Virus record (IMG/VR): IMGVR_UViG_2529293078_000007
Length of the DNA: 5,365 nt
Strand: one strand, 5' to 3'
From: a virus
Lineage: Duplodnaviria > Heunggongvirae > Uroviricota > Caudoviricetes
Below the pieces are notes generated by a model. The model worked only from the letters and a program-made list of their open reading frames with translations, ran no database searches and was not told the DNA's origin. Position 1 is the stretch's first letter. Each line of letters begins with the position of its first letter. Of this stretch, positions 1-3,486 are shown piece by piece. The position numbers and the translations under genes are program-made.

Positions 1-287
1 CTGTGACTGCGCATACGGGCCACCAGCAGAGGCGGCATTGCCTTTTCGATCGCCGGTAACAGAGCCTGCATTTTTTCAACTGCATCAGGGGTGTCTTTCT
101 CTATCCAGCGGAAAATTTTCTGGGTATTGCGAGCCAGGGCTTCCGGATGGCTGTCGTCGTACAGTTCAGGAAACGTCATACCCAACTCAAAATAAGCCTG
201 GGTTATTCCAGCTGCCGGAACTTTTTCGCCATCAGGACGCGCCCAGGCATTCATCGCCATGCGGATGTGTTCATGCTTGATTTTCAT
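1..287 (-). CDS. YdaT-like prophage regulatory protein (PF06254-type), partial; start codon at 287-285, runs off the window start
   Basis: Minus-strand frame is open from ATG (plus 285-287) to position 1 with no stop. Strong SD AAGGGGGG about 5 nt upstream (plus 293-300). N-terminus MKIKHEHIRMAMNAWARPDGEK... recalled as typical of YdaT-family proteins that follow cro-like genes in Rac-type prophages. The + strand ORF 38..280 is its antisense shadow. Confidence 0.5.
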   Translation of the reverse strand, partial: MKIKHEHIRMAMNAWARPDGEKVPAAGITQAYFELGMTFPELYDDSHPEALARNTQKIFRWIEKDTPDAVEKMQALLPAIEKAMPPLLVARMRSH

Positions 288-513
288 GAATCCCCCCTTG
301 GTTAGAAGGCGGATTATGATCAGAATCGGGAATGACAACCGTCGGTATGTGTAACTCATATTTGAGCGCCCCGGCAGTGACTGCCTGAATTAGCAACGCC
401 CATTTCCACGGAACGTCTTCCCCCCACATGCTGACTGTGGTTTTTGACGTTCCTAGAGCGGCGGCTGTTTTAACAACTCCGCCAAAATAGCCTAATACTT
501 CTGATTTTTTCAT
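271..513 (-). CDS. dicC: Cro/DicC-like small DNA-binding regulator, 80 aa
   Basis: Start chosen at ATG 513-511 (MKKSEVLGYFGG...) because GGAG lies 6 nt upstream; the track's start at 561 has no SD. Pattern YFGG..K.A.ALG....VS.W..D.VP...A.L.Q..T.G.L.Y resembles DicC as remembered. Divergent from the repressor gene. Its 3' end overlaps the YdaT-like start by 17 nt. Confidence 0.65.
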   Translation of the reverse strand: MKKSEVLGYFGGVVKTAAALGTSKTTVSMWGEDVPWKWALLIQAVTAGALKYELHIPTVVIPDSDHNPPSNQGGIHENQA

Positions 514-541
514 GAGTCGCTCCATAAAACTGAACGCCAAA

Positions 542-605
542 AGTTTAATAATCAAAACCAAAGAAAGTCAAGAAACAAAACCATCTGTGTTTTAAAATCA
601 AAACA
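542..605. promoter_or_regulatory. Divergent promoter/operator region between cro-like and repressor genes; three operator-like sites at 23-bp spacing
   Basis: AT-rich 91-bp intergenic region. Motifs TCAAAACCA (552-560), ACAAAACCA (575-583) and TCAAAACA (598-605) lie exactly 23 bp apart. The best site is the 18-bp palindrome TGTTTTaaaatcAAAACA (588-605), which overlaps the repressor start codon. Confidence 0.4.
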
Positions 606-1243
606 TGAACAAGCAAACAATATCTGAACGCATAACCCAACGTATGCATGCGCTAAACTTGAAAGGCAAAGACCTTGTCAATGCCACTGGCGCATCAAAA
701 GGCTCCGTAAGTCAATGGATGAACGGTGGAGGAGCGCCGTCCTCGCGTTACATAAGTTCACTGGCAAAGATATTGAAAGTAAACGAAAATTGGCTTCTTA
801 ATGGAGGAGAGTTAAATACAGGTGATTCGCTTGATCTATCTTTACCGCCGATAAAAACGGTTCCGCTACTATCACTTCAGCAGGCAGCAAGCTGGAGTGA
901 TTATATGAAAAATTCCTCAATAACCTCTTGTGTGCAGCTTGTCGGAGAAATCCCGGCCAATACCTTTGCTGTTGTTCTAGAGAGTGACAGTATGTCGACA
1001 TCTGGTGGTGGAGTTTCCATCCCAAATGGTTCAACAGTTTTTGTTGATCCCGATCGAATCGTACAACCAGGAAATATTGTCCTTGCCTTACCCAAAGGGA
1101 CCACAACGCCTGTCATTCGCAAACTGGAGATAGAAGGGCCGGATATTCTTTTAGTCCCCACGAATCCTCGCTACCCTTCAATTATGCTGGATGATCTATC
1201 TTGCATATTGGGAGTATGCTTTAAAATTCAACAAGATATTTAA
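605..1243 (+). CDS. Lambda cI-type prophage repressor, 212 aa: N-terminal HTH (XRE-like) plus C-terminal S24 LexA-like peptidase domain
   Basis: SLAKILKV matches lambda cI LAKILKV. C-terminal domain has the S24 Ser (ESDSM, Ser129) and Lys (VIRKLE, Lys173) at cI-like spacing, and LVPTNPRYPSIM resembles cI LQPLNPQYPMIP. No SD precedes ATG 605, so the mRNA may be leaderless as for lambda PRM. Confidence 0.85.
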   Translation: MNKQTISERITQRMHALNLKGKDLVNATGASKGSVSQWMNGGGAPSSRYISSLAKILKVNENWLLNGGELNTGDSLDLSLPPIKTVPLLSLQQAASWSDYMKNSSITSCVQLVGEIPANTFAVVLESDSMSTSGGGVSIPNGSTVFVDPDRIVQPGNIVLALPKGTTTPVIRKLEIEGPDILLVPTNPRYPSIMLDDLSCILGVCFKIQQDI

Positions 1244-1307: not shown

Positions 1308-1329
1308 AATGTTTTGATAAAAAAACATT
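1308..1329. promoter_or_regulatory. Operator-like palindrome AATGTTTTgataaaAAAACATT (second copy of TGTTTT-N6-AAAACA)
   Basis: Perfect 8-bp inverted arms with a 6-bp spacer. Core and spacing are identical to the 588-605 site. Lies directly against the -35 of the predicted promoter downstream of the repressor gene. Confidence 0.4.
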
Positions 1330-1356
1330 GACCTTAAATGTTCGTTTTTCTAAACT
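1328..1356 (+). promoter_or_regulatory. Candidate sigma70 promoter (PL-like) for the ydfA-like operon
   Basis: TTGACC (1328-1333), 17-nt spacer, TAAACT (1351-1356). Sequence-only prediction. Confidence 0.35.
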
Positions 1357-1535
1357 TCATTCATTCCCTCACCCCGCCCCACAGAATGCAGGGCAATACT
1401 TCGAGTTACCAGGCAGTGGTCAGGGGTTAAGTAGCCAGCCCGAGGCGTAAGAACATGACGGCAGGGTTCAACTTTAATAACTATGCAGCAGGTTTTTGTT
1501 CCGCTACCCCGGCGTTAAGGGGAAATGAGGTCAAC

Positions 1536-1688
1536 ATGGATACGCTCAATCTTGGCAACAACGAATCTCTGGTATGTGGCGTGTTCCCCAACCAGGACGG
1601 TACGTTCACCGCGATGACGTATACCAAAAGCAAAACGTTTAAAACTGAAGCTGGCGCGCGTCGCTGGTTAGCCAGAAACACTGACTGA
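1536..1688 (+). CDS. ydfA: YdfA-like small prophage protein (DUF1391-like), 50 aa
   Basis: ATG 1536 has GAGG 5 nt upstream, whereas the upstream in-frame ATG 1455 has a poorer SD and would give 77 aa. MDTLNLGNNESLVCGVFPNQDGTFTAMTYTKSKTFKTE... matches Qin YdfA as remembered, in the same position after the repressor. Stop TGA 1686-1688 overlaps ATG 1688 of the next frame. Confidence 0.55.
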   Translation: MDTLNLGNNESLVCGVFPNQDGTFTAMTYTKSKTFKTEAGARRWLARNTD

Positions 1689-1699
1689 TGAGGTTGACG

Positions 1700-2338
1700 A
1701 TGGAATTTAAAGATTTACCTCCTTCAATCCAGGAGATTGCAGCACACACACTTCGTCATCGTCTGAACGAACTTGAATTGGAATCGGTAACGAAAAAAGA
1801 CACTGATAATATGGCTCGTAATGTGCGCGATGCGTTTACCGGATTGTATTTCTGTGCGTCTATAAATAAACACGACTCAGAGAGTGTGGCAAATAAAATT
1901 GCAGAAACGACAGCGCAAAACATCAATACGAAACCAACGGAAGAAGAAATTGATCAGTTTGCTCATGATGCTGGTTTAAAAAACAAGAAAGAAAAATCGC
2001 CATATGCGGGGAACATGTTTGTTTATGACAATCTCATCAGAATTCGTGGCGAAATTCCGGCGGAATACCTGGCAAGAGTCCATCAGGCATTGCTTAAAAA
2101 TTTGGAAACAGAATTATTTGATGGCAACACTAACGGTTTCTTCATGGTATCAGGCCTTGAGAAAGACTGGGATGCAGAAAAACGCTGGAATGTTGCTACA
2201 TGGTTATTCAGTAACAGAGCCGCTGCACTGGAAGCTTCGGCATGTATTTGCGGCCTGTTCTTAACAGACCACAAATATAATCTGGATGTGTACAGTTATA
2301 TTTACGCTGAACACGGTCCACTCTGGATTGACTGGTAA
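1700..2338 (+). CDS. Hypothetical protein, 212 aa, no recognisable domain (alternative start 1688 would give 216 aa)
   Basis: Long ORF with GAGGT 5 nt upstream of ATG 1700. The alternative ATG 1688 overlaps the ydfA-like stop (TGATG). No Walker, HEPN, nuclease or transmembrane signature recognised by eye. Confidence 0.6.
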   Translation: MEFKDLPPSIQEIAAHTLRHRLNELELESVTKKDTDNMARNVRDAFTGLYFCASINKHDSESVANKIAETTAQNINTKPTEEEIDQFAHDAGLKNKKEKSPYAGNMFVYDNLIRIRGEIPAEYLARVHQALLKNLETELFDGNTNGFFMVSGLEKDWDAEKRWNVATWLFSNRAAALEASACICGLFLTDHKYNLDVYSYIYAEHGPLWIDW

Positions 2339-2548
2339 TTATAAGGAAACACCAGCAGGGCCGCGGCGACCAACAGAACGATTAAAATCAATAATGCCAT
2401 TATAAAGGACATTATTTAATTTATCGTCGAATGCTGATTCTGTGAGCCTCAACTCTGAATGAGTTTTTAATAACCCTGATTGCCTGAGTTGATTTACCAG
2501 GCATTCAATCTGTTTTTCAATAAGCGGATTTCTTTTTTTGTTTGGCAT
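2339..2548 (-). CDS. Hypothetical small protein, 69 aa, convergent with the 212-aa gene
   Basis: ATG at 2548-2546 is preceded by GGAGGAT (plus 2553-2559). The track's start at 2560 is the ATG inside that SD. Stop abuts the stop of the + strand gene (TAATTA, 2336-2341). Uses rare codons (AGA, AGG, TTA); no homolog recognised. Confidence 0.35.
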   Translation of the reverse strand: MPNKKRNPLIEKQIECLVNQLRQSGLLKTHSELRLTESAFDDKLNNVLYNGIIDFNRSVGRRGPAGVSL

Positions 2549-2579
2549 TTTATCCTCCATTGAGGTTCTGGGTTAAAAA

Positions 2580-2885
2580 TGGAGACCAACACGCTGTCAC
2601 GTGTGGTCGTGCGCCGGACACGGATAAGAATCCGGTACTGACAGTTTACTGAAAGGATATTTCCCTGAAAAGTCAGTGCATAACGCGAAAGCGTACGGCG
2701 AAGCTCTTTCCCTTAGAAGGCTTGTCGTTAGATTTCTTCGAACGTGCGCTTCCGGTTGTGGCACTCCGCGAAATGGCGCGGCGGTAAGTATGGCGGGGTT
2801 ATTCCTTCCCCATTGAGGACACCGGGTTGTCAGGTTGACCATACGCTTAAGTGACAACCCCGCTGCAACGCCCTCTGTTATCAAT
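2580..2885 (+). other. GC-rich, hairpin-dense non-coding region upstream of DicF (possible dicF precursor or separate structured RNA)
   Basis: No + strand ORF longer than about 20 aa. Nested hairpin CTGTCA (2594-2599)/TGACAG (2639-2644) enclosing CCGGA (2614-2618)/TCCGG (2631-2635). GNRA hairpin ACGC-GAAA-GCGT (2683-2694). Perfect 9-bp stem GGGTTGTCA (2824-2832)/TGACAACCC (2852-2860). The 95-aa minus ORF here has non-protein-like composition. Confidence 0.3.
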
Positions 2886-2943
2886 TTTCTGGTGACGTTT
2901 GGCGGTATCAGTTTTACTCCGTGGCTGCTCTGCCGCCCTTTTT
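2886..2943 (+). ncRNA. dicF: DicF-like small regulatory RNA (ftsZ-targeting antisense sRNA), including its 3' terminator
   Basis: tttctggtgacgtttggcggtatcagttttactccgtggctgctctgccgccc followed by TTTTT matches E. coli DicF as recalled. It sits immediately upstream of the dicB-like gene as in Qin. Ends are approximate (a few nt either way). Confidence 0.7.
2901..2943 (+). terminator. Intrinsic terminator-like element (3' end of DicF)
   Basis: GGCGG (2901-2905) and CCGCC (2932-2936) flank an internally paired region, followed by a T5 run (2939-2943). Confidence 0.45.
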
Positions 2944-3112
2944 AAAGTGAATTTTGTGATGCGGTGAATGCGGCTAAGCGCACGCGGAACAGTTAAAACC
3001 AAAAACAGTGTTATGGGTGGATTCTCTGTATCCGGCGTTAATTGTTAACTGGTTAACGTCACCTGGAGGCACCAGGCACTGCATCACAAAATTCATTGTT
3101 GAGGACGCGATA

Positions 3113-3301
3113 ATGGAAACGTCATTACCAAACGTTAATACGTCTGAAGGTTGTTTTGATATTGGTGTTCTGCTCAGTAACCGGGAGTTTACTGAAGATG
3201 CCATTAACATGAGGAAATATGAGCCTTATCTGCTCAATGATAATTCCATACTTTCCCGAATTGCTCTTCTTGAACTTGGTATTTTCGGAGAACGTCAATG
3301 A
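3113..3301 (+). CDS. dicB: DicB-like cell-division inhibitor, 62 aa
   Basis: METSLPNVNTSEGCFDIGVLLSNREFTEDAINMRK... closely matches the remembered Qin DicB N-terminus (..LPNVNTSEGCFEIGV...FTEDAIN.RK), with the same 62-aa length. GAGGA lies 7 nt upstream of ATG 3113. The track ORF 3008..3301 is an in-frame upstream extension without an SD. Confidence 0.8.
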   Translation: METSLPNVNTSEGCFDIGVLLSNREFTEDAINMRKYEPYLLNDNSILSRIALLELGIFGERQ

Positions 3302-3486
3302 CTTCAGCATTTGCACTGATGATGACGGTTTTTCTTATAACGGGTGAATCACAGAATGTGATTACCGGAATTTATGCCAGTAAAGAATCCTGCCTCCAGG
3401 CAAGAGACGAGCAAAAAATTTCTGGTGAATGCCTCCCGGTAAAAAAAGTATCGCTGTACCTGAATAACGAAACACCGGCTGGATAA
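3298..3486 (+). CDS. ydfD: YdfD-like small protein with hydrophobic N-terminus, 62 aa
   Basis: ATGA start/stop overlap with dicB (3298-3301) and GGAG 6 nt upstream. Hydrophobic N-terminal segment MTSAFALMMTVFLITG. Same size and position as Qin YdfD downstream of dicB. Confidence 0.6.
   Translation: MTSAFALMMTVFLITGESQNVITGIYASKESCLQARDEQKISGECLPVKKVSLYLNNETPAG

Follow-up and report, generated by a model that had tools for sequence, protein, structure and literature searches.

Gene organization of the locus

The stretch of DNA analysed here (referred to as the window; 5365 bp) corresponds to the immunity and early-left region of lambdoid prophage Sp11, being 99.9–100% identical to this region of Escherichia coli O157:H7 Sakai and related strains. 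From left to right, it contains the start of ydaT, a gene of the P22_Cro family, a 91-bp intergenic region, the gene for a 212-amino-acid repressor, and the ydfA-dicF-dicB operon, with fragments of recE and int following ydfD. The ydaT gene (positions 1–287, minus strand), which is cut by the end of the window, matched Pfam YdaT_toxin and encodes a cII analogue 87% identical to YdaT of CP-933P/Sp12. The product of the Cro-like gene (271–513, minus strand) comprises 80 amino acids and matched Pfam P22_Cro with E = 1e-15. The cI-like repressor (605–1243, plus strand), with a helix-turn-helix domain at its NH2 terminus and an S24 autopeptidase domain at its COOH terminus, matched Pfam S24 with E = 8e-13 and HTH_3 with 21.5 bits, a score just below the cut-off of 23. 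The cro gene on the minus strand and the repressor gene on the plus strand diverge from the intergenic region at 514–604, confirming the divergent cro/repressor arrangement proposed in a preliminary description of this DNA. A scan with Rfam gave no match in the intergenic region, the sole match being DicF elsewhere.

The operon that follows the repressor gene, and which lies under a P_L-like promoter, extends from 1455 to 3486 on the plus strand and contains ydfA (DUF1391), orf216, DicF, dicB, and ydfD, with the DicF RNA located at 2887–2938 (Rfam, 75 bits), dicB at 3113–3301, and ydfD at 3298–3486. Between the stop codon of the repressor gene and the first operator-like site upstream of this operon, we found a stable hairpin on the plus strand (1266–1295; GCCATC-N5-GATGGC) with a folding energy of −15.9 kcal/mol and a z score of −5.1. 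The GCCATC/GATGGC stem is invariant in relatives, the 5-nt loop is variable, and no U-tract follows. This hairpin may define the 3' terminus of the transcript for the repressor or impede read-through.

Sequence to the left of approximately position 291, on the ydaT side, is common to the window and Sp12, and homology with the leaders of Rac and Qin starts at approximately position 1370. To the right of this point the window and the Rac ydaF leader share ~96% identity, with the sequence upstream of ~1370 being unrelated to Rac. Given these homologies, the segment between ~291 and ~1370 is a swappable immunity cassette, the right edge of which falls just past the P_L-like start site. This cassette of ~1.08 kb was present in about 1035 to 1042 of 5426 genomes, so that the Sp11 type of immunity is found in ~19% of complete E. 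coli genomes (1035/5426); the sequence to the right of ~1370 was present in 3756 of the 5426. The left boundary coincides with a probable YdaT operator at the cro/ydaT junction (277–294), which resembles an O_M site and reads GGGATT-CATGAA-AATCAA on the minus strand. The site footprinted for YdaT of CP-933P/Sp12 lies at the same junction and has the form TTGATT-N6-AATCAA (TTGATT-CATGAA-AATCAA) (PMC9986795). In a search for the full YdaT dyad that allowed up to two mismatches, the only match was that at 277–294. The homology with Sp12 begins within this site, and the left boundary of the cassette therefore cuts the YdaT operator.

Promoters and transcription start sites

Promoters for cro and for the dicBF operon were identified with a consensus scan, and the −10 sequence of the repressor promoter was found by eye. 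The P_R-like promoter for cro and ydaT (535–571, minus strand) consists of a −35 hexamer TTGACT at 571–566, an 18-bp spacer, and a −10 hexamer TAAACT at 547–542. The P_RM-like promoter (570–605, plus strand) has a −10 hexamer TAAAAT at 593–598 and a weak −35-like sequence, AAGAAA, at 570–575. The P_L-like promoter, which is the equivalent of dicBp (1328–1363, plus strand), has a −35 hexamer TTGACC at 1328–1333, a 17-bp spacer, and a −10 hexamer TAAACT at 1351–1356.

We compared these promoters with start sites determined by Cappable-seq for strain EDL933 (PMC10469882, Table S5; coordinates of NZ_CP008957.1). Coordinates were converted according to the relation window = 1897225 − EDL933, anchored at the cro start codon, and EDL933 is identical to the window over positions 500–700 and 1300–1400. 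Among the entries of that table, the repressor start at 1896620 (−), corresponding to position 605, was detected in all eight conditions, and the start for cro and ydaT at 1896690 (+), corresponding to position 535, in two salt conditions only. The start for the DUF1391 gene and dicBF operon at 1895862 (−), corresponding to position 1363, was detected in 6 of the 8. In all three cases, six nucleotides intervene between the −10 hexamer and the start, the start being 7 nt downstream of the hexamer's last base. The predicted promoters thus match the mapped starts at single-base resolution, and the repeats described below therefore sit on core promoters. The divergent starts for cro and the repressor gene are 70 bp apart. 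Position 605 is the A of the repressor ATG codon, so that the repressor mRNA is leaderless, and an upstream Shine-Dalgarno sequence is absent.

Given that the O_R segment is single-copy in the sampled O157:H7 genomes, cross-mapping of reads in this segment is unlikely. The start at 1363 is less secure, because the transcript enters a leader common to other prophages after ~7 nt. As far as the tabulated data go, detection of this start in six of eight conditions would mean that repression at the dicBF promoter is incomplete or, alternatively, that reads were cross-mapped from the leader-sharing prophages. The tabulated pattern of a repressor start in every condition and a rare cro start fits a lysogenic state with the repressor ON, and the restriction of the tabulated cro start to salt conditions may hint at a switch that responds to osmotic stress.

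The two conditions in which the cro start is tabulated are exponential and stationary salt stress. DicF is generally regarded as arising by processing. A start detected in one condition at 2886 (EDL933 1894339) is positioned 1 nt before the 5' end of DicF, and further condition-specific starts are given within the 5' portion of the repressor gene at 622, 666, and 703 (EDL933 1896603, 1896559, and 1896522) (PMC10469882). Beyond these, among the table entries covered from the same paper, no P_RE-type start inside cro or other extra start was found.

Repeats between cro and the repressor gene

The preliminary description had reported three motifs containing CAAAAC with a spacing of 23 bp in this region, as well as a palindrome overlapping the repressor start codon. 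Both features are present exactly as described. The motifs are TCAAAAC at 552–558, ACAAAAC at 575–581, and TCAAAAC at 598–604, with the CAAAAC cores starting at 553, 576, and 599, and the 18-bp palindrome at 588–605 reads TGTTTT-AAAATC-AAAACA, its last base being the A of the ATG codon at 605–607. The base composition of the repeat region is 48% A. An equally spaced triple of an exact 6-mer, with a spacing of 10 to 35 bp, arose in 1.2% of 20,000 dinucleotide-preserving shuffles of the region, and the triple by itself (P of ~0.012) is suggestive, not decisive. The palindrome is much stronger evidence: exact matches to TGTTTT-N6-AAAACA lie at 588 and 1310 and nowhere else in the window, and the pattern was absent from all 200 shuffles. 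The looser pattern GTTT-N8-AAAC with up to one mismatch gave four matches in 5.4 kb compared with 4.2 expected and is thus not above chance; all four matches (543, 589, 1311, and 1340) fall within the two promoter regions. In 17.7 kb of Sp11, WGTTT-N8-AAACM with no mismatch was found only at the sites designated S1, S3, and OL1 below.

Three 18-bp frames can be placed on the repeats, and only the outer two are dyads (AGTTT-N8-AAACC at 542–559 and TGTTT-N8-AAACA at 588–605). The first, S1 (542–559; AGTTTAATAATCAAAACC), is an OR1-like candidate operator that extends over −7 to −24 relative to the cro start and has the −10 hexamer as its left half. The middle frame, S2 (565–582; AAGTCAAGAAACAAAACC), is an OR2-like half-site. 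The right half, CAAAACC, is the same in S1 and S2; the left half of S2 (AAGTC) lies outside the dyad pattern and forms part of the cro −35 hexamer. Relative to the cro start, S2 extends from −30 to −47. Relative to the repressor start site, it extends from −23 to −40, over the −35 element and spacer of that promoter, and its center is at approximately −31.5. With the left half-site missing, binding at S2 may be weak or absent. The third frame, S3 (588–605; TGTTTTAAAATCAAAACA), is an OR3-like candidate operator with a perfect dyad that covers −17 to +1 of the repressor promoter and is centered at approximately −8.5 relative to the repressor start.

We also considered the possibility that the S3 palindrome forms an RNA hairpin. 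We rejected this candidate, given that the fold is weak (−3.6 kcal/mol, z = −1.4) and that the palindrome lies upstream of the start site at 605 and is not transcribed from the repressor promoter. Separately, a possible fourth half-site in the same register is apparent at 519–536, corresponding to +17 to −1 of the cro transcript, where GAAC (532–535) takes the place of AAAC, as it does in OL2. This half-site has no statistical support.

Operator-like sites at the dicBF promoter

The second exact copy of the palindrome, at 1310–1327, is located 67 bp past the stop codon of the repressor gene and abuts the TTGACC-17-TAAACT promoter at 1328–1356. This candidate operator, OL1 (TGTTTTGATAAAAAAACA), carries the S3 dyad (15/18 when inverted) and lies at −36 to −53 relative to the dicBF start, directly adjoining the −35 hexamer. 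A second candidate, OL2 (1339–1356; TGTTCGTTTTTCTAAACT), is a weaker dyad, GTTC-N8-AAAC, with one mismatch, and is situated over the dicBF −10 hexamer. It spans −7 to −24 of this promoter, which is the position that S1 occupies at the cro promoter. The spacing of OL1 and OL2 is 29 bp, compared with 23 bp in O_R, and O_L is ~720 bp from O_R. OL1 is conserved in relatives with variable flanks, and the left half of OL2 appears among relatives as GTTC, GTTT, or GCTC. The presence of the palindrome at both early promoters is the O_R/O_L pattern of lambdoid phages.

Conservation of the 18-bp frames in relatives

A protein search with the repressor yielded only 12 close relatives, the diverged members of which were 83–89% identical. 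The relatives compared (contigs L005 to L011 and L017) represent three or four independent diverged lineages, and all retain the arrangement of Cro, 91-bp region, and repressor. Their coding DNA is 80–83% identical to that of the window, with 58–64% identity at third codon positions and a dS of ~0.9 to 1.3.

The three frames were set from the window sequence alone, before conservation was inspected. Of the intergenic positions, 2 of the 53 that fall inside the frames were variable, compared with 14 of the 38 that fall outside them (Fisher one-sided p = 5e-5; three or four lineages), and four of the five bases in the spacer between S2 and S3 vary (583–586). S2 was invariant in all relatives, S1 was invariant with the exception of C559A, and S3 with the exception of A600G. 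The C559A substitution shifts S1 toward the dyad consensus. The A600G substitution affects the innermost position of the half-site, and the symmetric position in OL1 of the same lineage is also changed (T1315A). A variant of the 98% type, sampled at two loci (L013 and L018), contains a single intergenic change, which is outside the frames.

In the phage collection, copies with 98–99% identity were followed by repressor relatives with only ~30% identity, and none fell between ~30% and 83%. A scan of genome contigs with the repressor gave only spurious matches to S24 domains (Mycobacterium, Alicyclobacillus). A scan of viral contigs for the operator recovered near-identical copies of the same immunity region together with single chance matches.

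The repressor gene and its annotation

The repressor aligned over its full length with lambda cI (PDB 3bdn, E = 5e-10), and its NH2-terminal domain matched structures of the 434 and P22 c2 repressors. The helix-turn-helix domain and that of DicA share 37% identity. In the alignment with lambda cI, Ser129 and Lys173 occupy the positions of the catalytic residues. The residues that align with the Ala111-Gly112 cleavage site of lambda cI are Ala-Ala (QQA-ASW; codons 95 and 96, window 887–892), with Ala96 in the position of lambda Gly112, and Ala-Ala is kept in all relatives. The inducibility of this repressor by the SOS response is therefore uncertain.

Codons 1 to 70, which encode the helix-turn-helix domain, showed a dN/dS of 0.05, and the reading frame from 605 is thus under purifying selection. 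In Sakai, EDL933, AR_0114, and ES5, the gene is annotated as a 112-amino-acid "LexA family protein" that starts at an internal ATG at 905 (905–1243), and no coding sequence is annotated over 605–700 in 24 of 25 sampled genomes. The Sp11 repressor was also scored as "disrupted" in an earlier survey (PMC2669165). The gene for the 212-amino-acid repressor is intact and conserved and gives rise to a leaderless mRNA, and the record of a fragment or a disrupted gene is hereby corrected. The shorter annotation likely arose because the leaderless start has no ribosome-binding site.

At codons 71 to 100 (window 815–904), dS falls to 0.15–0.22, compared with 0.9–1.6 in the flanking domains. Just beyond this segment are an internal GGAG and the ATG at 905. 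Its low dS possibly reflects a recombination patch or a constraint at the nucleotide level, such as an internal translation start.

Comparison with known immunity switches

The likeness to the lambda OR1-OR2-OR3 arrangement that had been noted previously is supported by the gene context, the overlap of the sites with promoters, the copy of the motif at a second promoter, and the conservation of the frames, and is essentially right, with the caveat that the middle repeat is a half-site. The two switches share a divergent repressor/cro pair, three sites spaced ~23 bp from center to center over both promoters, the recurrence of the same motif at the leftward early promoter, and a repressor with helix-turn-helix and S24 domains that aligns with cI over its full length. 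The repressor mRNA is leaderless in both, that of lambda cI according to the work cited in PMC8630535. Sp11 differs from lambda in that its operator motif is unrelated, its middle site is a half-site, its O_L consists of two sites 29 bp apart at ~720 bp from O_R, and its repressor has Ala-Ala instead of Ala-Gly at the cleavage site. The divergent start sites of lambda are 82 bp apart, compared with 70 bp in Sp11, and OR2 of lambda is centered at approximately −42 from the repressor start, compared with approximately −31.5 for S2. Given this difference in the position of the middle site, positive autoregulation of the lambda kind should not be assumed for Sp11.

A parallel in layout within the same genome is the neighboring prophage CP-933P/Sp12, for which electrophoretic mobility shift assays, footprinting, and reporters applied to a 97-bp region showed a bistable PaaR2/YdaS switch, with equally spaced 18-bp palindromes, two of them without one half, and a leaderless repressor gene (PMC8630535). 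The intergenic region is short in both prophages (97 bp versus 91 bp in Sp11), the hexamers of the cro promoter are identical (TTGACT-18-TAAACT), and the −10 hexamer is embedded in an operator half-site, GTTTA. Both also have equally spaced 18-bp palindromes, some as halves only, a leaderless repressor, and an O_M site (probable in Sp11) at the same junction. The operators of CP-933P are of the form GTTT-N10-AAAC, with four sites at a spacing of ~19 to 20 bp, whereas those of Sp11 are of the form GTTT-N8-AAAC, with three sites at 23 bp. PaaR2 has no S24 domain, and a toxin-antitoxin pair follows its gene. We detected no similarity between the Sp11 repressor and PaaR2 or between Sp11 Cro and YdaS. 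Assignment of Sp11 to the PaaR2/YdaS/YdaT immunity type of CP-933P, with its GTTTAGTAA half-sites, was therefore rejected, only YdaT (87%) being common to the two.

The dicA-dicC-dicBp region of the heteroimmune prophage Qin in strain K-12 has the same downstream operon, ydfA-dicF-dicB-ydfD, and the same promoter layout, with a dyad TTAGC..GCATA followed by TTGACC and then by TTAGTCATGGCTAA over the −10 position. It differs from Sp11 in that DicA comprises 135 amino acids, is without an S24 domain, and is not SOS-cleavable, and in that its operators are dyads of the TTAGT type (PMC10448788, PMC3441716). Sp11 Cro showed no detectable similarity to DicC. The DicA/DicC immunity type was likewise rejected, given that homology is limited to the helix-turn-helix domain (37%), that Cro is unlike DicC, and that the operators differ.

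In the racR-ydaS-ydaT region of Rac, likewise a heteroimmune prophage, the leader after the P_L-like start is ~96% identical to that of Sp11, and the P_L layout is also alike, with TAGGCATAGCCTA followed by TTGACA and then by TAGGCATTACCTA, these being Rac's own TAGGC-N3-GCCTA dyads. RacR is unrelated to the Sp11 repressor. With regard to immC of P22 (c2, cro), Sp11 Cro belongs to Pfam P22_Cro and the Sp11 repressor is ~29% identical to c2 over its full length, whereas the operator sequence and immunity specificity differ. The operators of P22 are 18 bp long, as are the Sp11 frames.

Proposed model of the Sp11 switch and alternative explanations

Taken together with the positions of the sites on mapped promoters, these comparisons lead us to conclude that the repeats very probably serve the immunity switch of lambdoid prophage Sp11 as its O_R sites. 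The preliminary description had further proposed cooperative binding and a bistable switch of the cI/Cro type. We infer the assignment of proteins to sites, cooperativity, order of occupancy, and bistability from the geometry of the sites and from the precedents of lambda, Qin, and CP-933P. In the model that we favor, dimers of the 212-amino-acid repressor and of the P22-Cro-like protein would recognize the 18-bp pseudo-dyad (T/A)GTTT-N8-AAAC(A/C). Repressor bound at S1, over the cro −10 hexamer, and at the S2 half-site, over the −35 hexamer, would shut off cro, ydaT, and the replication genes, with occupancy of S1 and S2 probably being cooperative across the 23-bp spacing. Through S3, which covers the −10 hexamer and +1 position of the promoter for the leaderless repressor mRNA, excess repressor would regulate its own synthesis negatively and Cro would shut the promoter off. 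Repressor at OL1 and OL2, which bracket the ydfA-dicF-dicB promoter, would silence that operon too. Loss of the repressor, in which the S24 Ser and Lys residues are present and the cleavage site is Ala-Ala, would flip the switch.

A simpler version, which we consider unlikely, would reduce O_R to two operators, S1 and S3, separated by 46 bp and mirroring the two-site O_L. The middle CAAAAC would then have been kept for its place beside the cro −35 hexamer and in the spacer of the repressor promoter, or would bind only Cro or a single monomer. In keeping with such an arrangement, S2 agrees with the half-site core at one of four positions in its left half (AGTC versus GTTT), which is simply the −35 hexamer TTGACT, S2 does not match GTTT-N8-AAAC with one mismatch or fewer, and O_L itself has two recognizable sites only. 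On the other hand, the CAAAACC of S2 is identical to that of S1 and is placed at the exact midpoint in the 23-bp register, where the chance of the 6-mer is ~0.002 as estimated from base composition. Positions 576–582 are, moreover, invariant in relatives despite lying in a promoter spacer, a region usually under little sequence constraint, whereas the adjacent positions 583–586 all vary, and half-palindromes also occur within the footprinted operator array of CP-933P. These features argue against an O_R of two operators.

It is also conceivable, although we judge it improbable, that Sp11 has a switch more compact than that of lambda and with a different logic, in which autoregulation is negative only and the trigger is osmotic stress, or stress of another kind, instead of cleavage mediated by RecA. 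This reading draws on the 70-bp distance between the divergent starts, the center of S2 at approximately −31.5, the Ala-Ala sequence at the cleavage site, the detection of the repressor start in eight of eight conditions, and the restriction of the cro start to salt. Activation of the repressor promoter in the lambda style from a site centered at approximately −31.5 is unlikely.

That the repeats are phased A-tracts conferring intrinsic curvature or a stimulation similar to that of UP elements, instead of operators for specific proteins, is very improbable. A-tracts separated by approximately two helical turns are in phase, curved AT-rich DNA is often found between divergent promoters, and the high A content of the region (48%) suits such a role. 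An 18-bp dyad that includes the half TGTTT, which is not an A-tract, nevertheless recurs 722 bp away at the second promoter. In addition, substitutions in relatives avoid the frames, while equally AT-rich spacers vary, and heteroimmune prophages carry quite different dyads, without A-tracts, at the same positions.

The idea that the repeats are sites for the cII analogue YdaT, which draws on the presence of AATCAA in S1 (549–554) and S3 (596–601) and on the 87% identity of YdaT here with the characterized CP-933P protein (PMC9986795), can be set aside as most improbable, given that neither AATCAA has a TTGATT partner 6 bp upstream and that the sole match to the dyad with up to two mismatches is that at the cro/ydaT junction (277–294), where the CP-933P site also lies.

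Implications

The Sp11 switch is of a thoroughly familiar kind and has an uncharacterized immunity specificity, and nothing about it is conceptually new beyond the lambda paradigm. To the first reading of the repeats, the present analysis adds sites at O_L, three promoters mapped by experiment, a repressor mRNA without a leader, and the recognition of the middle repeat as a half-site. The most useful by-product is one of annotation, in that a 212-amino-acid repressor takes the place of a 112-amino-acid COOH-terminal fragment.

In O157:H7, one of the dicF-dicB operons would be under the control of the switch of the Sp11 type, and a link has been drawn between DicF and the regulation of virulence in enterohaemorrhagic E. 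coli. With the operators and three promoters located, regulation of dicF-dicB is directly testable. If the switch were flipped by stress, expression of DicF and DicB in enterohaemorrhagic E. coli would be coupled to osmotic or other stress.
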